Shown here piece after piece: positions 3,434 through 64,000 of a DNA stretch of 64,000 nt. The DNA comes from Escherichia phage vB_EcoM-CHD94UKE2, in sequence record MZ234031.1; one strand, given 5' to 3'. Position 1 is the stretch's first letter; each line of letters starts with the position of its first letter. The notes under the pieces are model-generated. The model ran no database searches and was not told where the DNA came from. It was given only the letters and a program-made list of their open reading frames with translations. Position numbers and translations under genes: made by a program.

Positions 3434-3847
3434 ATGAAATTAGAAGATCTTCAAGAAGAATTGAAGAAAGATGTGTTTATAGATTCGACTAAATTACAGT
3501 ATGAAGCAGCTAATAATGTGATGTTATATAGTAAATGGCTTAATAAGCATTCAAGTATTAAAAAGGAAATGCTTAGAATTGACGCACAGAAAAAAGTTGC
3601 TCTTAAAGCTAGATTAGACTACTACTCGGGACGAGGAGATGGTGATGAATTTAGTATGGATCGTTACGAGAAATCAGAAATGAAGACAGTTCTATCAGCT
3701 GATAAGGATGTTTTAAAGGTTGATACTTCATTACAATATTGGGGAATTTTATTAGATTTCTGTAGCGGAGCTCTTGATGCTATCAAATCACGCGGATTTG
3801 CTATTAAGCATATTCAAGACATGCGGGCATTTGAGGCTGGAAAATAA
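3434..3847 (+). CDS. uvsY: recombination mediator protein UvsY
   Basis: 137 aa, MKLEDLQEELKKDVFIDSTKLQYEAANNVMLYSKWLNKH...; near-identical to remembered T4 UvsY (137 aa). Confidence 0.95.
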   Translation: MKLEDLQEELKKDVFIDSTKLQYEAANNVMLYSKWLNKHSSIKKEMLRIDAQKKVALKARLDYYSGRGDGDEFSMDRYEKSEMKTVLSADKDVLKVDTSLQYWGILLDFCSGALDAIKSRGFAIKHIQDMRAFEAGK

Positions 3848-12813: not shown

Positions 12814-13623
12814 TTAGAAACGAGATGCGACTTTCGCATATACACTTACAATATCTTCTGCACCTTGTGCAGATTTATCTTCTACAGCTTCAGTGACGAA
12901 ATTCAGTCCGGCTGCTTCAGTATCAGGAGTATTTATACTCTCAGTAATAGTGCTTTCATCTTTATTAGATTTCTTCACCATTTCTACGATTGCACTCAAT
13001 TTACTTGAGAATGCATCTGAATAATCCATACCTTCGACCAGAGCAGAGACTTTTTCTTTTTGAGACTCAGTCAGATCTTTAGTACTTTCGCTCAATGCCA
13101 CTTCACGCTGCACATAATTGATATATGCGTCACGCTTATTGAGTTCTTCGAACAGACGAGCTGATTCTTCTTTATGTTCTTGCAGTTCTTCTTCCATTTC
13201 AGCTACAACATCAACTGATTCTTCTGGAACAACAACGTTGTGTTCAACGAAGAGCTCTTTCAATCCACCAAGCATGGATTCAAACAGTTCGGCTTTGATA
13301 CCTTTATCTACTGCTAATTTATTTTCAGTGAGCCATTCTTTTGCAAGATGGTCAAGGAATTTAGAAGCTTGCTCAGCGATTTTCTTCTCAGCTTTTTCTT
13401 CTGCTTCTTCTTTATTTTTTTCTACTTCTTCTTCTGCTTTTTCAGCAATTTTAGCGATATGAGATTCAGCTAATTTAACGGCGTGCTGCTTGACGGTAGC
13501 TTCGAATACAGTGCCGAAAGTTTCTTTTGCTTCCGGAGAAATATTAACTGATTCGAAAATACTATCAAGAGCAACGGAAGCATCAATTTTCTGCGCTTCG
13601 GCAATCAGTTGTTCTTTAAGCAT
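12814..13623 (-). CDS. 22: prohead core scaffold protein gp22
   Basis: 269 aa, highly charged coiled-coil; T4 gp22 269 aa. Confidence 0.95.
   Translation of the reverse strand: MLKEQLIAEAQKIDASVALDSIFESVNISPEAKETFGTVFEATVKQHAVKLAESHIAKIAEKAEEEVEKNKEEAEEKAEKKIAEQASKFLDHLAKEWLTENKLAVDKGIKAELFESMLGGLKELFVEHNVVVPEESVDVVAEMEEELQEHKEESARLFEELNKRDAYINYVQREVALSESTKDLTESQKEKVSALVEGMDYSDAFSSKLSAIVEMVKKSNKDESTITESINTPDTEAAGLNFVTEAVEDKSAQGAEDIVSVYAKVASRF
12930..12937 (-). promoter_or_regulatory. late promoter for gene 23 (inside 3' end of gene 22)
   Basis: rc TATAAATA within gene 22 coding sequence, about 135 nt upstream of gene 23 ATG. Confidence 0.5.
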
Positions 13624-13650: not shown

Positions 13651-13658
13651 TATTTATA
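13651..13658 (-). promoter_or_regulatory. late promoter for gene 22
   Basis: rc TATAAATA 28 nt upstream of gene 22 ATG. Confidence 0.7.
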
Positions 13659-14292
13659 ACGCTTTTTTCATGGCCTCTGCGAGAGCCATATAGGCGTCAT
13701 CGGCACTTGTATCGGCTTCCGCCGTCTGTGATTCGGTAATTTCCTTAGGAGTTACCCATGCATCTGGAGCACTTGGACCCCATACTGCATCAACACCTAC
13801 AGTTAATTTGAATCCTTCGTTTACGATACGATAACCTTTATTTGTGTCAGTCAATGAACCTAATCCACGAGAAGAAACTCCTGGAATCCATCCGGCACGA
13901 ATATTAGCTGCTAATTTATCTCCAGGACCGTGGTCACCTTCAATAACACGAGCTCGTCCGTATACGTCATTTCCTTTCCACCACATATCTTCTATAATGA
14001 TAGCGGCTTGCATCGGGTCAACATTAGCGCGTGGAGGATGATTTAATTCTCCGAGAGCTTGTTTAGTTAAAACTTGCTCATTAATATAGTCTTTTACCGC
14101 TTTTTCTAATATACGTTTTGGATAAAGACGTTTATTTCTATTGACGACTTCCGCTTGCATGAATATTCCTTCGATGTATAAACCCGGTTTTAAACCTAAG
14201 TCTTTTCCATCATGAGATTCAAGCATTGGTACGCCATCAATAATTTCGCCAGGTTGACCCCAAGTTTCAATTAGTAATTGGGGTTCATTCAT
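13654..14292 (-). CDS. 21: prohead core protease gp21
   Basis: 212 aa; T4 gp21 212 aa; synteny. Confidence 0.95.
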   Translation of the reverse strand: MNEPQLLIETWGQPGEIIDGVPMLESHDGKDLGLKPGLYIEGIFMQAEVVNRNKRLYPKRILEKAVKDYINEQVLTKQALGELNHPPRANVDPMQAAIIIEDMWWKGNDVYGRARVIEGDHGPGDKLAANIRAGWIPGVSSRGLGSLTDTNKGYRIVNEGFKLTVGVDAVWGPSAPDAWVTPKEITESQTAEADTSADDAYMALAEAMKKAL

Positions 14293-39807: not shown

Positions 39808-40260
39808 ATGGCATATTCTGGAAAATGGGTTCCTAAAAATATATCAAAGTATAGAGGTGACCCTAAAAAAATTACGTATAGATCAAATTGGGAAAAATTC
39901 TTTTTTGAATGGTTAGATAAAAATCCAGAAATTATTGCATGGGGTAGTGAAACAGCAGTAATTCCTTATTTTTGTAATGCAGAAGGGAAAAAACGTAGAT
40001 ACTTCATGGATATTTGGATGAAAGATTCTTCTGGACAAGAATTTTTTATTGAAATAAAACCTAAAAAAGAAACACAACCACCAGTTAAACCAGCACATCT
40101 AACAACTGCAGCGAAGAAAAGATTTATGAATGAAATTTATACATATTCCGTTAATACTGACAAATGGAAAGCAGCTCAAGCTTTAGCTGAAAAGCGTGGA
40201 ATAAAATTTAGAATTTTAACAGAAGATGGATTACGAGCTCTTGGCTTTAAGGGGGCATAA
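39808..40260 (+). CDS. 4: head completion protein gp4
   Basis: 150 aa; divergent from gene 53. Confidence 0.9.
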
Positions 40261-41084
40261 TGGCTATTTTTCAAATAATTAATGAAAGCACTCCCCAAGT
40301 TCCAAAGGTTAAGCAATCATTAAACGAAAAGAAATGGATTCAGATAGGTCTTGAATATAAAAAGGCCAAAGCAAAAGGAATGACCGGAAAGCAATTTGCT
40401 GAAGAAAGAGGAATCAAATACTCTACGTTTACTTCAGCAATGTCAAAATATGCTTCAGGAATTAAAACGGCTGAAAAGATTCAAAAGCTTGAATCAAAAC
40501 CAATGAATAAACTCAATAAGCAAGAAAGACAACTGCTTATGATAAATTCATTCAGACAAACATTGCGCGATAAAATTCGTAATGAAGGCGCAGCAATTAA
40601 TAATAAAACCAGAAAGTGGTTTGCTGAAACTATTAAGCAAGTAAAAGGACATAAAGTTGTTCGCCCGCAGCCGGGACGAATATATGCTTTTGCTTATGAT
40701 GCTAAACACAAGGAAACTCTTCCTTACTGGGATAAATTTCCTTTGATAATTTACCTTGGTTTAGGTAAGCATAATTTAATGTACGGATTGAACTTGCACT
40801 ATATTCCACCTAAAGCTCGTCAACAGTTTCTAGAAGAGCTTTTAAAGCAATATGCAAATACACCTACTATTACTAATAAAACGAAATTAAAAATTGATTG
40901 GAGTCAAGTGAAAGGATTTAGGGGTGCAGACCAAATGATTAAGGCATATATACCTGGTAATATTATGGGTAGCCTTGTTGAAATCGCCCCGAAAGACTGG
41001 GCGAACGTTGTGTTAATGCCACTTCAGCAGTTCGTTTCAAAAGGAAAACGTTTCTCTGCAAACAAAGTCTGGTCAAATATCTAA
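40260..41084 (+). CDS. 2: DNA end protector protein gp2
   Basis: 274 aa; TAATG overlap with gene 4. Confidence 0.9.
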
Positions 41085-41770: not shown

Positions 41771-42498
41771 ATGAAACTAATCTTTTTAAGCGGTGTAAAG
41801 CGTAGTGGAAAAGATACTACTGCTGATTTTATCATGAGCAATTATTCTGCAGTTAAATACCAACTTGCTGGTCCTATTAAGGATGCATTGGCTTATGCAT
41901 GGGGAGTATTTGCAGCAAATACCGACTATCCTTGCTTAACTCGTAAAGAGTTTGAAGGAATTGACTATGATCGTGAGACTAATTTAAATCTAACTAAATT
42001 AGAAGTAATCACGATTATGGAACAAGCATTTTGCTATCTTAATGGTAAAAGCCCAATTAAAGGTGTGTTTGTTTTTGATGACGAAGGGCAAGAATCAGTT
42101 AATTCCGTAGCATTTAACAAGATTATTGACGTTATAAATAATATTGAAGATCAATGGTCAGTCCGTCGTCTGATGCAAGCCCTAGGTACGGATTTGATTG
42201 TTAATAACTTCGACCGCATGTACTGGGTAAAATTATTTGCTTTAGATTATCTTGATAAATTTAACTCAGGTTATGATTATTATTATATCGTTCCTGATAC
42301 CCGTCAAGATCATGAAATGGATGCGGCTAGGGCGATGGGTGCTACAGTAATTCATGTAGTTCGTCCTGGTCAAAAATCCAATGATACACATATTACAGAA
42401 GCTGGATTGCCAATTCGTGATGGCGATTTAGTAATTACAAACGATGGTTCTCTTGAAGAACTTTTTTCTAAAATTAAAAATACACTAAAGGTACTATA

Positions 42499-42499
<1 letters not shown>
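41771..42499 (+). CDS. 1: deoxynucleoside monophosphate kinase gp1
   Basis: 242 aa; P-loop LSGVKRSGKDT; middle promoter upstream. Confidence 0.95.
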
Positions 42500-43184
<685 letters not shown>

Positions 43185-43196
43185 TTTCACAAAGTT

Positions 43197-43236
43197 GTTT
43201 ACATACTGATGAGGTAGTGATACTATTACCTCATCA
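43197..43236 (+). promoter_or_regulatory. early promoter (GTTTAC, 17 nt, TACTAT) embedded in 10-bp-stem hairpin TGATGAGGTA/TACCTCATCA (PeSL-type)
   Basis: -35-like TTTACA 43198-43203, -10 TACTAT 43221-43226 lying in hairpin loop; upstream A/T-rich tract. Confidence 0.75.
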
Positions 43237-43257
43237 AAATTAATTAGGAAAATAAAA

Positions 43258-43515
43258 ATGAAAACTTTCAAAGAGTTTGCTACAAAAACTACTATCACTG
43301 AATCTTCCCACGGTATGGAAGTAAAGCTTGGAATGGCTTTAGCTGAAGCTGAGCGTCTTTTCTCTCGTATTAAAGAACTTGCTGCTGCGGTCGATCCTTC
43401 ATCTTTTAAAGGAGACCAAACTAAAGTTAAAGCACTTTTAGCATTATGCTCCGATGCAGGAGAAATTGCTAAAAATGGTTCTAAGATGAAGAAACGATTA
43501 GAAGATTTAAAATAA
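43258..43515 (+). CDS. internal-protein-like small protein with degenerate capsid-targeting leader
   Basis: 85 aa, MKTFKEFATKTTITE|SSH (ITE fits gp21 (I/L)xE cleavage motif); paralog of ORF 51409; preceded by early promoter stem-loop. Confidence 0.6.
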   Translation: MKTFKEFATKTTITESSHGMEVKLGMALAEAERLFSRIKELAAAVDPSSFKGDQTKVKALLALCSDAGEIAKNGSKMKKRLEDLK

Positions 43516-43527
43516 TTTCACAAAGTT

Positions 43528-43564
43528 GTTTACATAGGGTTTTAGTTGTGATACTATTACCCTA
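43528..43564 (+). promoter_or_regulatory. early promoter, PeSL-type (repeat of 43197 element including upstream AATAATTTCACAAAGTTGTTTACA)
   Basis: TTTACA 43529-43534, TACTAT 43552-43557, flanking inverted repeat ATAGGGT/ACCCTAT. Confidence 0.75.
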
Positions 43565-43586
43565 TCAAAACCAAATGGAAATCAAA

Positions 43587-43820
43587 ATGAAAACTTACCA
43601 AGAATTTATTGCTGAAACTGCTGATGTAAAAGTTGAGTTTATTTACACTGGCAAGAAAGATAAAATGGGTGAAATGCCTCATGGAGTTCTTCGTGATGCA
43701 TTAGATAATTTCGGTCAACTCGCCGCAGAAGATTACGGTGATAAAATTGTTGTTACTGGTCCTGCTGCAGTTATTGAAAAATGGGCAGCAGAAAATAAAT
43801 CAATTTTTCGTAAAAAATAA
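43587..43820 (+). CDS. internal protein with canonical capsid-targeting sequence (IP)
   Basis: ATG 43587 (track ORF starts at upstream GTG); MKTYQEFIAE|TADVK..., 77 aa; preceded by early promoter. Confidence 0.7.
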   Translation: MKTYQEFIAETADVKVEFIYTGKKDKMGEMPHGVLRDALDNFGQLAAEDYGDKIVVTGPAAVIEKWAAENKSIFRKK

Positions 43821-43860
43821 GTTTACTTTTAGATAGGGTAGTGATACTATTACCCTATCT
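43821..43860 (+). promoter_or_regulatory. early promoter, PeSL-type with perfect 10-bp inverted repeat AGATAGGGTA/TACCCTATCT around -10
   Basis: GTTTAC 43821-43826, TACTAT 43845-43850. Confidence 0.75.
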
Positions 43861-43878
43861 ACTACTGAGGAGAATAAA

Positions 43879-44064
43879 ATGAAACGTTGTGAATTAATTC
43901 GAAATGTTGCTATTGCAATTTCTGCTTCCGCTTTCAGTTTTTCAATGTTTGTTGGATTTATATGCGGATTATTGACTACGGCAGAAAATGTTTTTTCACT
44001 TGTAGTAGCATTTTTAATTGGTTTAATTGCTATTGTTATGGATAAAATTTCTAAAGGTGAATAA
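43879..44064 (+). CDS. small hydrophobic membrane protein
   Basis: 61 aa, two hydrophobic helices; GAGGAG RBS; own early promoter. Confidence 0.55.
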   Translation: MKRCELIRNVAIAISASAFSFSMFVGFICGLLTTAENVFSLVVAFLIGLIAIVMDKISKGE

Positions 44065-44462
44065 TGAACGTTGAATATTATGTATATGCGGATTACGAAA
44101 ATAATCCGTCTAAAGATGAAGATAATCGTTTAGGTGTAGATGCTTTCGATTCCCCTGCGGCGGCATGGCAATGGGTTGAAAGAACCGATATTCCTTACCG
44201 TTATATTGAAGTGGTTGACCACGCAGGAAACAAGTATCCTAAGGAAGCATATGTTGCTTCCGGGAAGGTAAATTTCCTTTTGTTTGCAGGTGATAATTAT
44301 TATCCCCGTGGTGGGTATACCGATTTAATTGCTAAAGCATTCTCTGAAGATGAACTCCGTGACATTATCAAAGAAAATGAAAACAAACCGATGGATTCTA
44401 ATCGCTTTGATTGGTGGCAAATCGTAAATGCTAATACTCACACTATTGTTGATGAAGGCTGA
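44064..44462 (+). CDS. hypothetical protein
   Basis: 132 aa; TAATG coupling with previous ORF. Confidence 0.6.
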   Translation: MNVEYYVYADYENNPSKDEDNRLGVDAFDSPAAAWQWVERTDIPYRYIEVVDHAGNKYPKEAYVASGKVNFLLFAGDNYYPRGGYTDLIAKAFSEDELRDIIKENENKPMDSNRFDWWQIVNANTHTIVDEG

Positions 44463-44464
44463 TA

Positions 44465-44752
44465 ATGATTCTTTATGCGAAAGTATCATCCATTGAAAAT
44501 GGATATAAATATGATCAAGACGCGGCTAAAGCTTTGATTGATGATTATGGCATTTTAACATGTTTTGAAGTTGAAAAGGTTTACATTGACCGTTCATCTT
44601 CTCAAGTTAAATTAGTGAAGGAAGAACGTAAATTTAATACAGTAAATTTTGATTTCTTTATTGAAACAGAAAAAGGTCCTCTTGAATATGATATTTTCAA
44701 GAATCCTTTGGGTCTTGAATGCATCGTAAATATGTATTATTATAAATGGTAA
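44465..44752 (+). CDS. hypothetical protein
   Basis: 95 aa ORF immediately upstream of tRNA cluster. Confidence 0.6.
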   Translation: MILYAKVSSIENGYKYDQDAAKALIDDYGILTCFEVEKVYIDRSSSQVKLVKEERKFNTVNFDFFIETEKGPLEYDIFKNPLGLECIVNMYYYKW

Positions 44753-44849
44753 ATATGCTTTAAGAATTATTTGTTATTATTAACTCATATCGCACTGATT
44801 AATACCCTCTATCATCAAGGGTTCTTGCTTAAGAGCCTTTGTTAATAAT

Positions 44850-44922
44850 TGGGAATTAGCCAAGTTGGTAAGGCACTGGATTTTGATTCCAGGATGCAAA
44901 GGTTCGAGTCCTTTATTCCCAG
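44850..44922 (+). tRNA. tRNA-Gln (anticodon UUG)
   Basis: cloverleaf read by hand: acceptor TGGGAAT/ATTCCCA, anticodon loop TTTTGAT, T-loop GGTTCGAGTCC. Confidence 0.85.
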
Positions 44923-44923
44923 C

Positions 44924-45010
44924 GCGAGAATGGCCAAATTGGTAAAGGCACAGCACTTAAAATGCTGCGGAATGATTTCCTTGTGGGTTCGAGTCCCACT
45001 TCTCGCACCA
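44924..45010 (+). tRNA. tRNA-Leu (anticodon UAA), type II with long variable arm, CCA encoded
   Basis: acceptor GCGAGAA/TTCTCGC, anticodon stem CAGCA/TGCTG loop CTTAAAA. Confidence 0.85.
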
Positions 45011-45015
45011 AATTT

Positions 45016-45089
<74 letters not shown>

Positions 45090-45099
45090 ATTTAATTTA

Positions 45100-45173
45100 C
45101 TCCGTGTAGCTCAGTTTGGTAGAGCGTCTGCTTTGGGAGCAGAATGTCGTAGGTTCAAATCCTGCCACGGAGA
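45100..45173 (+). tRNA. tRNA-Pro (anticodon UGG)
   Basis: acceptor CTCCGTG/CACGGAG, anticodon stem TCTGC/GCAGA loop TTTGGGA. Confidence 0.8.
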
Positions 45174-45175
45174 CT

Positions 45176-45265
45176 GGAGGCGTGGCAGAGTGGTTTAATG
45201 CACCGGTCTTGAAAACCGGCAGTCGCTCCGGCGACTCATAGGTTCAAATCCTATCGCCGCCGCCA
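45176..45265 (+). tRNA. tRNA-Ser (anticodon UGA), type II
   Basis: anticodon stem CCGGT... loop CTTGAAA, variable-arm hairpin GTCGC/GCGAC, T-loop GGTTCAAATCC, CCA encoded; acceptor position 3:70 reads A:G. Confidence 0.8.
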
Positions 45266-45270
45266 GTTTT

Positions 45271-45346
45271 GCTGATTTAGCTCAGTAGGTAGAGCAACTC
45301 ACTTGTAATGAGAAGGTCGGCGGTTCGATTCCGTCAATCAGCACCA
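45271..45346 (+). tRNA. tRNA-Thr (anticodon UGU)
   Basis: acceptor GCTGATT/AATCAGC, anticodon loop CTTGTAA, CCA encoded. Confidence 0.8.
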
Positions 45347-45347
45347 A

Positions 45348-45422
45348 GGCCCTGTAGCTGGAAGGTTCAAGCAAGCGACTCATAATCGCCAGATGGTGGT
45401 TCAATTCCACCCAGGGCCACCA
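45348..45422 (+). tRNA. tRNA-Ile (anticodon CAU, presumably lysidine-modified to read AUA as in T4)
   Basis: acceptor GGCCCTG/CAGGGCC, anticodon loop CTCATAA, CCA encoded. Confidence 0.75.
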
Positions 45423-45431
45423 AATTAATTT

Positions 45432-45518
45432 GGGGAGTTATCCCGTAGAGGTAGCGGTGTGGACTGTAAATCCATTGTCATTGCGACTCGGGTGGTTCGA
45501 CTCCACCATTCCCCACCA
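45432..45518 (+). tRNA. tRNA-Tyr-like (anticodon GUA), type II; D-arm atypical
   Basis: acceptor GGGGAGT/ATTCCCC (one G-U), anticodon stem GTGGA/TCCAT loop CTGTAAA, long variable arm, T-arm GGTGG-TTCGACT-CCACC, CCA encoded. Confidence 0.6.
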
Positions 45519-45522
45519 ATTT

Positions 45523-45597
45523 GGATGTGTAGCTCAATGGCAGAGCGATCGCCTGTTAAGCGATTGGTTATAGGTTCGAATCCTATCACGTCCGCCA
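45523..45597 (+). tRNA. tRNA-Asn (anticodon GUU)
   Basis: acceptor GGATGTG/CACGTCC, D-stem GCTC/GAGC, anticodon stem ATCGC/GCGAT loop CTGTTAA, CCA encoded. Confidence 0.8.
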
Positions 45598-45601
45598 AAT
45601 T

Positions 45602-45617
45602 TGTGACAACTGTCACA
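45602..45617. repeat. perfect palindrome TGTGACA-AC-TGTCACA in spacer between tRNA-Asn and tRNA-His
   Basis: read directly; 7-bp inverted repeat with 2-nt spacer. Confidence 0.7.
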
Positions 45618-45711
45618 TTAATATCTACTTGACGCGATTATAGGGGTTGAACTGATCACTCTTCTCTTAATTTCGTGTGAAGACATCTTGATTGTTGGAG
45701 TAGGTATTAAT

Positions 45712-45787
45712 GTGGCCGTAGTTCAGTTGGTAGAACTCGAGATTGTGATTCTCGTAGTCATGGGTTCGACTCCCATCGGTCACCCCA
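45712..45787 (+). tRNA. tRNA-His (anticodon GUG)
   Basis: acceptor GTGGCCG/CGGTCAC, D-stem GTTC/GAAC, anticodon stem CGAGA/TCTCG loop TTGTGAT, discriminator C, CCA encoded. Confidence 0.8.
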
Positions 45788-45791
45788 ATTA

Positions 45792-45867
45792 CGGGGCATA
45801 GCTCAGAAGGAAGAGCAAGGACCTTCTAAGTCCTAGGTCGTAGGTTCGATCCCTACTGCCTCGACCA
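45792..45867 (+). tRNA. tRNA-Arg (anticodon UCU)
   Basis: acceptor CGGGGCA/TGCCTCG, anticodon stem AGGAC/GTCCT loop CTTCTAA, CCA encoded. Confidence 0.85.
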
Positions 45868-46660: not shown

Positions 46661-47224
46661 ATGAAAACCTATGCCGAGTTTTTAACCGAAGCAGCAAAAT
46701 TACCATCTGAAGCAGATCTTACTAAAGTATTCTTCCACTTGGACCCAAAAGACCGCGGCGATTTTCTTAAGTGGAAAGCTAAAGCTATTGAAATGTATAA
46801 CATTGATAATAGTTCTTTTACGATGAGTCAAGAAAATAAATTCAATAAAGCATTTTTCAAAATTTCTAAGAAACTGGCATCTGGCGCTCAGGTTCCTAAA
46901 TCTGCCTTAGCTACTCCTGAACGTGCACCTGTCAAAATTTCTAAGAATATGTTCGACACTAAAAAATACGTTAATGCTTTGAATAAAGCTCTTGATGCAT
47001 TGGATGATGCAAAGAAGGCAGCCCGTGATCTTCAAGATGTGTACACCGATTTTGATCGTAAAACTAAAGGTTCTATTTCAAATAGCGAACGCAATAGTGT
47101 AAGTGTTTATTCTGATAGTCTTGATGTTCTTGGCGATGCGTATACTGAAATTAAAAATCGTATTAACACCGCATCTAAGCTAAAAGCTGCCGCAGAAGCT
47201 ATAATAACTAAACTAGATAAATAA
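46661..47224 (+). CDS. internal-protein-like protein with capsid-targeting leader (187 aa)
   Basis: MKTYAEFLTE|AAKLPSEADL...; LTE fits gp21 cleavage motif; terminator follows. Confidence 0.7.
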   Translation: MKTYAEFLTEAAKLPSEADLTKVFFHLDPKDRGDFLKWKAKAIEMYNIDNSSFTMSQENKFNKAFFKISKKLASGAQVPKSALATPERAPVKISKNMFDTKKYVNALNKALDALDDAKKAARDLQDVYTDFDRKTKGSISNSERNSVSVYSDSLDVLGDAYTEIKNRINTASKLKAAAEAIITKLDK

Positions 47225-50887: not shown

Positions 50888-51690
<803 letters not shown>

Positions 51691-52168: not shown

Positions 52169-52429
52169 ATGAAAATGTATCAAGAATTTATCGCTGAAGC
52201 AGATGCCAAAGGCCCCAAATTTAAAGTTAAAGCTTTCGTTGGTGATGCCGAAGATTTTGGCTCATTAAAACGTAATGGGTATTTTTTCTTAGGTGGTGAT
52301 GGTAAAGAAATCAACACCTATGCAAAACGTAGTGAAATTGCTTATGTTGCTGCAAGTCCTAAAGTAGATGTTGACGATATTGGATACGATTTTAACAACT
52401 TCGGAATTATTTCTGGCGGTGAAGCTTAA
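52169..52429 (+). CDS. internal protein with capsid-targeting sequence (ipII-like size)
   Basis: MKMYQEFIAE|ADAKGPKF..., 86 aa. Confidence 0.75.
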   Translation: MKMYQEFIAEADAKGPKFKVKAFVGDAEDFGSLKRNGYFFLGGDGKEINTYAKRSEIAYVAASPKVDVDDIGYDFNNFGIISGGEA

Positions 52430-52492: not shown

Positions 52493-53071
52493 ATGAAAAC
52501 ATATAAAGAATTTATTGCTGAAGCTTCTGTAGTAAAGGCCAAAGGCATTAATAAGGACGAGTGGAACTATCGTGGTGGAAACGGCTTTGACCCTAAAACA
52601 GCCCCTATTGAACGATACTTAGCTACAAAAGCTTCCGATTTTAAAGCTTTCGCTTGGGAAGGACTTCGCTGGCGTACCGATTTAAATATTGAAGTTGACG
52701 GACTTAAATTTGCTCATATTGAAGATGTTGTTGCTAGTAACTTAGACGCAGCTTTTGTTAAAGCCGACAGTGATCTTCGTCGCTGGAATTTAAAACTGTT
52801 CTCTAAACAAAAAGGCCCGAAGTTTGTGCCTAAAGCCGGTAAATGGGTCATTGATAATAAATTAGCTAAGGCTGTCAACTACGCTGGTCTTGAATTCGCC
52901 AAGCACAAATCATCATGGAAAGGTCTTGATGCAATGGCTTTCCGTAAAGAATTTGCCGATGTTATGGCTAAAGGCGGCTTTAAGGCAGAAATAGATACCT
53001 CTAAAGGTACGTTTAAGGACGCTAATGTTCAGTACGCTTACGCCGTTGCTAATGCAGCCCGTGGTAATTAA
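52493..53071 (+). CDS. internal protein with capsid-targeting sequence (ipIII-like size)
   Basis: MKTYKEFIAE|ASVVKAKG..., 192 aa (T4 IPIII about 194 aa); own early promoter. Confidence 0.8.
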   Translation: MKTYKEFIAEASVVKAKGINKDEWNYRGGNGFDPKTAPIERYLATKASDFKAFAWEGLRWRTDLNIEVDGLKFAHIEDVVASNLDAAFVKADSDLRRWNLKLFSKQKGPKFVPKAGKWVIDNKLAKAVNYAGLEFAKHKSSWKGLDAMAFRKEFADVMAKGGFKAEIDTSKGTFKDANVQYAYAVANAARGN

Positions 53072-63934: not shown

Positions 63935-63964
63935 GTTTACAGAAGGGTAGTAGTGTGATACTAT
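63935..63964 (+). promoter_or_regulatory. early promoter, PeSL-type (GGGTAG...TACCCTATC)
   Basis: GTTTAC 63935-63940, TACTAT 63959-63964. Confidence 0.7.
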
Positions 63965-64000
63965 TACCCTATCAAAACAAATGTGAGATTGGAGAATAAA

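Follow-up and report, generated by a model that had tools for sequence, protein, structure and literature searches.

In T4, the first 10 residues of the internal protein IPIII suffice to load proteins, including green fluorescent protein and nucleases, into the head; residues 4 and 7 of this leader are important in targeting, residues 8 and 10 in processing, and cleavage by the prohead protease gp21 follows L/I-x-E (PMC9026906). IPI is packaged at about 360 copies (PMC4437046), the T4 proteins Ip1, Ip2 and Ip3 inhibit GmrSD type IV restriction enzymes, a different one in each case (Silas et al. 2025, PMC12373910), and more than 30 internal protein (IP) variants were known by 2007 (PMC2839356). 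The subject here is a pair of adjacent genes, ip5 and ip6 (43258-43820), in a 64,000-nucleotide stretch of Escherichia phage vB_EcoM-CHD94UKE2 (MZ234031.1), referred to below as the window. It is very probable that this interval is the hyperplastic "ipI locus" of Tequatrovirus, with ip5 and ip6 replacing the ipI gene of T4 and with products that are packaged and act against host defence by the mechanism proposed below. The feature is real, its interpretation in an initial annotation made from the sequence is correct, and it is already known: the genes, their leaders and the promoter/stem-loop cassettes that flank them have been in the literature for three decades, and the model of gene shuffling and the target of Ip6 are likewise published. 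The features of the locus are as follows.

42726-43184, + strand: 57B, encoding the Acb1 phosphodiesterase directed against the cyclic-oligonucleotide-based antiphage signalling system (Pfam PF23474 Acb1, E 2.7e-60); conserved left border of the ipI locus.
43197-43236, + strand: cassette 1; -35 box TTTACA at 43198-43203, -10 box TACTAT at 43221-43226.
43258-43515, + strand: ip5 (open reading frame (ORF) A), precursor of an internal protein, 85 residues; leader at 43258-43302 (MKTFKEFATKTTITE).
43528-43571, + strand: cassette 2; -35 box at 43529-43534, -10 box at 43552-43557, with an imperfect inverted repeat.
43587-43820, + strand: ip6 (ORF-B), precursor of an internal protein, 77 residues; leader at 43587-43616 (MKTYQEFIAE).
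43821-43861, + strand: cassette 3; -35 box at 43822-43827, -10 box at 43845-43850; drives the trna.4 homologue.
43879-44064, + strand: trna.4 homologue, a hydrophobic protein of 61 residues beginning MKRCELIR (phrog_1692); conserved right border of the ipI locus.

The source segment is that of a Tequatrovirus (T4-like phage) and matches T4 gene for gene (57B, ipI, trna.4, trna.3, trna.2, tRNAs), the sole difference in gene order here being the single ipI of T4 as against ORF-A and ORF-B in the window. 57B is annotated in T4 at the equivalent relative position, and the trna.4 homologue agrees in position and size with T4 trna.4 and stands to the right of the leader-bearing ORFs in most of the loci surveyed. 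The interval between these two genes is one of two variable IP loci, the other being next to e/denV; in 36 IMG/VR loci anchored on 57B it holds from 0 to 4 leader-bearing ORFs, and when these are pooled with the IPs of T4 and the window and stripped of the leader, 22 sequence families result, of which that of Ip6 is the largest at the surveyed 57B loci. The ip5-ip6 arrangement (751 bp) is covered to at least 80% in 160 phage records, and the DNA of the region is 99.3% identical to that of phage KarlGJung and 100% identical to those of G3F7, WilhelmHis and UTI-E2. The initial annotation had placed two leader-bearing proteins immediately after 57B, each behind its own early-promoter cassette, and the two ORFs are indeed found exactly so on the + strand. 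Minus-strand ORFs of 40-41 residues in the interval were set aside solely for their shortness.

The two genes can be named as those of internal proteins Ip5 and Ip6 because database annotation and literature agree. ORF-A is 100% identical to Ip5 of RB15, which a 1994 GenBank record puts directly after 57B, and 98.8% identical to Ip5 of T2; it belongs to phrog_3499 "internal head protein" (match 1-85/85, E 1.2e-49), a family present in 496 phage records, including T2, RB32, RB51 and RB70. ORF-B belongs to phrog_8111 "internal virion protein" (1-77/77, E 1.2e-52), is annotated ip6 or ipVI in VR7, VR25, fFiEco06, PST and GiZh, with annotated relatives 78-100% identical, and is found in 245 phage records. 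The statement of the initial annotation that these were proteins of no recognised sequence thus does not hold, the two having been named Ip5 and Ip6 in 1994 and being widespread. A mechanical ORF listing extended ORF-B to 90 residues from a GTG at 43548; this was rejected and the ATG at 43587 taken as the true start, because most listed homologues are 77 residues long and start there (4 of 7 aligned; VR7/VR25) and because the gene's own -10 box (43552-43557) lies downstream of that GTG.

Both proteins begin with a capsid-targeting leader, MKTFKEF in Ip5 and MKTYQEF in Ip6, each having an aromatic residue at position 4 and another at position 7, and both leaders close in the gp21 motif, ITE at residue 15 of Ip5 and IAE at residue 10 of Ip6; the initial annotation had accordingly read them as leaders of the T4 internal protein type ending in (I/L)xE, and that reading stands. 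The six-frame translation of the window contains six matches to the pattern MK[TSM][YF]xEF, all of them at the start of an ORF; 200 mononucleotide shuffles and 200 codon-block shuffles contain none. The decapeptide MKTYQEFIAE of Ip6 is identical to the capsid-targeting sequence of T4 IPII and IPIII, while the leader of Ip5 (MKTFKEF...ITE) resembles the longer one of IPI; T4 IPI begins MKTFKEFTSTTTPVSTITE followed by A, and the solved IPI* chain 2JUB starts immediately after the Glu of the IPI leader. The glutamates at the putative cleavage sites, E15 of Ip5 and E10 of Ip6, are invariant in the respective family alignments, that of Ip5 including a paralogue of 48% identity. ORF-A reads MKTFKEFATKTTITE followed by SSHG, which gives a predicted mature Ip5 at 43303-43512 of 70 residues and 7.5 kDa, with an isoelectric point (pI) of 9.2 and 13 K+R in the 70 residues; ORF-B reads MKTYQEFIAE followed by TADV, with a predicted mature Ip6 at 43617-43817 of 67 residues, 7.4 kDa and pI 6.5. 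The cognate prohead protease and components of the scaffolding core are encoded in the same window:

12814-13623: gp22 scaffold, adjoining gene 21 (T4_CASP, E 5e-90).
13654-14292, - strand: gene 21, the prohead protease expected to remove the leaders (Pfam Peptidase_S77, E 1.4e-111).
Adjoining gene 21: gp67 and gp68 (GP67, E 2e-42).

By analogy with T4 IPI and IPIII, the leader would bind the gp22 scaffolding core, so that the precursor is built into the prohead; gp21 would then cut after ITE15 of Ip5 and IAE10 of Ip6, freeing proteins of about 7.5 kDa that would stay inside the head until they pass into the cell along with the DNA. Packaging, processing and injection of Ip5 and Ip6 are thus all inferred from their T4 relatives.

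The target of Ip6 comes from a close relative of the window phage. In a HIDEN-SEQ preprint of November 2025, phage Bas37 is said to carry "two different genes" at its ipI locus (bioRxiv 10.1101/2025.11.20.689424). Bas37 is KarlGJung, MZ501089, by the annotation table of the preprint and the GenBank record; the two genes, bas37_0260 and bas37_0261, lie between 57B (bas37_0262) and trna.4, and ORF-B is identical to the product of the former in 77 of 77 residues, as ORF-A is to that of the latter in 85 of 85. Insertions in bas37_0260 gave 8.4 reads on E. coli K-12 BW25113 as against about 300 on uropathogenic E. coli (UPEC) strains (log2 fold change +5.0, adjusted P (padj) 0) and caused no fitness defect on K-12 without mcrA, mcrBC and mrr, and a clean deletion of the gene was specifically sensitive to McrBC (bioRxiv 10.1101/2025.11.20.689424). 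Since the identical protein is genetically needed against McrBC, an anti-defence role is supported for Ip6, which can be described as an experimentally supported McrBC counter-defence protein. The initial annotation had put forward both proteins as candidate injected anti-defence effectors; the anti-defence role is borne out for Ip6 against a type IV enzyme, while for Ip5 the role is still hypothetical and the GmrSD data are negative. Once inside the cell, mature Ip6 would neutralise the modification-dependent type IV enzyme McrBC, and its near-neutral pI makes direct binding to McrB or McrC a likelier mode of action than mimicry of DNA in the manner of Arn or Ocr.

Arn of T4 is an acidic DNA mimic without a capsid-targeting leader, an early cytoplasmic protein that is not injected and that counters McrBC. 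Bas37 encodes it (bas37_0090), and insertions in this gene were not depleted on the McrBC-positive BW25113 (632.8 reads, compared to 8.4 for ip6). Since Arn is present and ip6 is still needed in Bas37, Arn is no substitute for Ip6 there. This contrast fits a protection that is needed at the moment of DNA entry, before phage genes are expressed, although it is no proof of injection.

A number of points weigh against the reading of the locus as one of packaged and injected counter-defence proteins. In the literature search, neither virion proteomics nor N-terminal sequencing nor an injection assay turned up for either protein. Directly upstream of ip5 and ip6 there is no late promoter (TATAAATA); the nearest on the + strand is at 42133 inside gene 1, and late expression for loading into the prohead would therefore need read-through. 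The McrBC result for bas37_0260 stands in a preprint and is genetic only; moreover, the Ip6 phenotype is not reproduced through polarity by insertions in ip5 or 57B, so that early expression alone might suffice for Ip6. In Ip5, internal (L/I)xE motifs fall in the long first helix, LAE30 (residues 28-30, followed by A) and IKE40 (residues 38-40, followed by L), and are kept in the paralogue; if they are accessible to gp21, the packaged protein could be a set of fragments rather than the 70-residue protein. The genes "ip4-10" from T4-like phages gave no reproducible inhibition of GmrSD variants (PMC12373910). T2 has at its ipI locus Ip5 and a second leader-bearing ORF of 102 residues (phrog_2667, likely Ip7), and is restricted by the GmrSD enzymes of ECOR21 and ECOR17 (PMC12373910) and of CT596 (PMC4437046); as T2 carries Ip5 and is nevertheless restricted, Ip5 does not block those three enzymes. 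Finally, the predicted folds of both proteins are generic and give no clue to function.

Some of these points could be turned into a different explanation, namely that Ip5 and Ip6 act only as early products after infection and that the leader is a relic of cassette shuffling, with no functional packaging or injection. A strong early promoter stands before each gene, and neither gene has its own late promoter; Arn establishes that McrBC can be countered by an early protein that is not injected; and since ip5 and 57B insertions fail to copy the ip6 phenotype, there is no sign that a long late transcript is required. The explanation is nonetheless very improbable. The leader of Ip6 is residue for residue the capsid-targeting sequence that suffices to bring foreign proteins into the head of T4; the leader and its Glu cleavage site are kept across the 22 otherwise unrelated families of the locus, which argues for selection on the leader itself; T4 IPI, at the same site and behind the same early-promoter cassette, is packaged; and in Bas37 on BW25113 it is Arn that is dispensable and Ip6 that is not.

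For Ip5, in the preferred reading most likely another injected inhibitor, directed against some other host defence, a lead comes from the same insertion data. On the UPEC strain CFT073, insertions in bas37_0261 (ip5) fell from 263 to 61 reads (log2 fold change -2.09, padj<1e-5; Extended Data Table 7), and on CFE299 they were not depleted (-0.01); insertions in bas37_0262 (57B/acb1) gave -1.56 (padj 0.003) on CFT073 and +0.13 on CFE299 (bioRxiv 10.1101/2025.11.20.689424). The comparison of the ip5 values in the supplementary tables covers CFT073 and CFE299, and the CFT073 depletion is not taken up in the main text of the preprint. The depletion could reflect a host-specific role of Ip5, a nucleotide-signalling defence that is countered by Acb1, or a local polar effect, the last being possible because 57B insertions are depleted on CFT073 as well. 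CFT073 carries a GmrSD homologue, c5421 (PMC4437046), and it can be suggested, tentatively and with the odds somewhat against it, that Ip5 is an injected inhibitor of a defence present in CFT073 and absent from K-12 and CFE299, e.g. c5421 or an undescribed system. If true, this would be the first function for one of the most widespread T-even internal proteins.

The same protein invites another explanation, i.e. that the main task of Ip5, and possibly of Ip6, is to fill the head or to associate with the DNA as a basic core protein, aiding prohead assembly or DNA condensation, with no specific host target. Mature Ip5 is basic, like the classical basic internal proteins, its predicted fold is a generic helical bundle, the GmrSD screens gave it no target, and IPIII mutants show head-assembly defects (PMC9026906). 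However, neither gene is needed at all on the reference host, where insertions hit 18 of 18 TA sites in ip5 and 15 of 15 in ip6; Ip6 is not basic and has a specific McrBC phenotype; and the difference between the two UPEC hosts in the depletion of ip5 insertions is a host-specific effect, not one of assembly. The number and content of genes at the locus are variable, some loci having none, which fits accessory counter-defence genes. A core function without a host target is therefore very improbable.

The profile and structure searches that the initial annotation had proposed were carried through; the sequence searches gave nothing credible outside the proteins' own families, and the predicted folds are generic. 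Neither protein has a Pfam match above threshold, NCBIfam and PADLOC gave nothing significant for either, and a search of 5.8 billion proteins returned close orthologues only (5 for Ip5, 11 for Ip6). In the PDB sequence search Ip5 gave noise only, at E>0.7, and Ip6 no match at E<=10. The AlphaFold2 model of Ip5 is a helical bundle (pLDDT, the model's confidence score, 82), with a leader of low pLDDT and a confident mature domain; that of Ip6, likewise of pLDDT 82, with a low-confidence leader and a mature part of high confidence, has a ferredoxin-like beta-alpha-beta-beta-alpha-beta fold. With Ip6 the BFVD search gave Ip6 of VR7 as its top match and a structural relative in Citrobacter phage Merlin. 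When mature Ip6 was run exhaustively with HMMER against 1.84 billion representatives, its own family (two members) and one protein of 491 residues were returned; the latter was judged spurious, its five matched stretches lying in a tandem repeat with a chance likeness, "DKDKSGE..HPSGV".

The Ip6 family extends to remoter T4-like phages, in which members of 68-78 residues start at or overlap the stop codon of 57B (IMG/VR loci L005, L010, L015, L016, L021, L023, L028 and L030, at about 3456-3700). Outside the leader, G58, P59, I63 and W66 (Ip6 numbering) are invariant in this wider family and an acidic residue at 64 and N70 nearly so, the distant members sharing just the leader and the GP...I(E/D)xW...N segment. 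The loop KDKMGEMP is invariant in Tequatrovirus Ip6 and absent from the distant members, and on this pattern of conservation it is a candidate specificity determinant.

The two genes are set within three repeated cassettes, 77-100% identical, each consisting of GTTTAC, a 17-nucleotide spacer, TACTAT and an inverted repeat of 10-11 bp around the -10 box, i.e. a repeated composite motif in which all three copies carry promoter hexamers and hairpins; the repeated unit itself spans 43197-43235, 43528-43566 and 43821-43859. Cassette 1 has a perfect 10-bp inverted repeat (43207-43216 / 43227-43236) with a predicted RNA hairpin of -17.4 kcal/mol (z -5.4), cassette 2 a hairpin of -15.6 kcal/mol (z -4.0), and cassette 3 a perfect 11-bp inverted repeat (43830-43840 / 43851-43861) with a hairpin of -18.5 kcal/mol (z -4.7). 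A promoter scan called two of the three as TTTACA-17-TACTAT with an extended TG upstream, and in Yersinia phage fPS-65 all three are annotated "predicted early promoter". No intrinsic terminators are predicted in 42400-45000 and no U-run follows the cassette stems, and the hairpins are therefore not classical terminators. Rfam found only the downstream tRNAs in the region. The 14-nucleotide cassette core GTGATACTATTACC has four exact copies in the window, compared to 0.32 expected at <=2 mismatches. The fourth lies at 63936-63975 (+) at the edge of the window, far from the IP loci, and shows GTTTAC, a spacer, GTGATACTATTACCCTATC and an inverted repeat of its own; the motif is therefore a general form of T4-type early promoter that is not restricted to the internal protein genes.

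Comparison of the cassettes of the window (43197-43861), T4 (L002, 10011-10467) and T2 (L003, 2915-3709) reveals a mosaic. The 57B-ipI intergenic sequence of T4 equals window cassette 1, the identity running on into the first leader codons (T4 ipI compared with window ip5); the cassette between ipI and trna.4 of T4 consists of the 5' half of window cassette 2 and the 3' half of cassette 3; and cassette 2 of T2 consists of the 5' half of window cassette 2 and the 3' half of window cassette 1. The junctions of these mosaics fall within the core GTGATACTATTACC, fitting crossovers there. In the process proposed in the literature, near-identical promoter/stem-loop cassettes would serve as sites of recombination through which phages exchange ip genes; a passage of Arbiol 2010 (PMC2839356) credits Repoila 1994 with these PeSL-like elements of the T-even IP locus, there described as flanking promoter/inverted-repeat elements of roughly 70 bp.

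Around the locus the window continues in T4 fashion with the following genes, all on the + strand.

40260-41084, + strand: gene 2, then gene 3.
41771-42499, + strand: gene 1, deoxynucleoside monophosphate kinase.
42499-42729, + strand: 57A.
44064-44462 and 44465-44752, + strand: ORFs of 132 and 95 residues.
44850-45867, + strand: eleven tRNA genes (Gln, Leu, Gly, Pro, Ser, Thr, Met, Tyr, Asn, His, Arg).

In the T4 stretch used for comparison the tRNA genes number eight, accompanied by an inserted segB homing endonuclease and the small RNAs rnaC and rnaD; no segB-like ORF was seen within the window tRNA cluster (44850-45867).

In total the window holds six leader-bearing ORFs, none of them a homologue of IPI or IPII. 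One, of 187 residues at 46661-47224 (+), begins MKTYAEFLTE followed by AAKL, a canonical capsid-targeting leader with the motif LTE, and lies after the tRNA cluster, outside the two classical IP loci. It falls in phrog_2280 "unknown function" and occurs in 164 phage records; among the 25 matches listed, 24 are annotated, all as "hypothetical protein" or "Phage protein", Bas37 included. To judge from its N-terminus, this ORF may be an unrecognised internal protein outside the classical loci. A second gene of the Ip5 family, at 51409-51690 (+), encodes 93 residues with 48% identity to Ip5 (phrog_3499, E 3e-46) and overlaps the stop codon of the lysozyme gene e, which its family adjoins in RB69-like phages too. 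Its leader might be cleaved at either of two sites, LSE10 and LNE15. The gene lacks a cassette of its own, and two late-promoter boxes TATAAATA stand at 50890 and 50903, upstream of e. On the denV side of the second IP locus are a leader-bearing protein of 86 residues at 52169-52429 (+), acidic with a pI of 4.8 and assigned to phrog_2667 "internal head protein", and a leader-bearing IPIII orthologue at 52493-53071 (+) that is 95% identical to T4 IPIII.

Because internal proteins arrive together with the phage DNA, they are able to put restriction enzymes out of action ahead of the expression of any phage gene. As an exchangeable slot, the ipI locus contributes to the host range of T4-like phages, a group with many members in therapeutic use, and the presence of Ip5 and Ip6 instead of IPI predicts that this phage should resist McrBC and may be sensitive to GmrSD of the CT596 type.

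Compared to the described systems, T4 IPI occupies the same genomic slot as ip5 and ip6 behind the same upstream cassette, up to the start of the leader, and the mature proteins are of similar size (about 7.5-8 kDa), Ip6 sharing with it a role against type IV restriction; similarity to IPI* (2JUB) in sequence or fold, as for an IPI*-like GmrSD inhibitor, was not found for Ip5 or Ip6. With Arn of T4, Ip6 has the target enzyme McrBC in common, and the two differ in that mature Ip6 is near neutral and has no sequence match in the PDB, a comparison made by sequence and pI. The bas37_0260 gene of Bas37/KarlGJung is the same as window ip6 in sequence, locus and neighbours, the phages themselves being close but not identical. 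PeSL elements likewise combine an early promoter and a stem-loop flanking small accessory ORFs, with near-identical copies as recombination substrates (PMC2839356; Comeau 2014, PMC4122927), whereas the elements of the T-even IP locus have T4 early promoters rather than the sigma-70 consensus and AT-richer stems without poly-G/poly-C (PMC2839356), and in the window cassettes the stem encloses the -10 box. The IP locus of RB15 reads ip5-ip9-ip7-ip8, that of T2 ip5 and likely the gene for Ip7, and that of T4 ipI; the ip5-ip6 pair of the window is thus one of many arrangements of the same locus.

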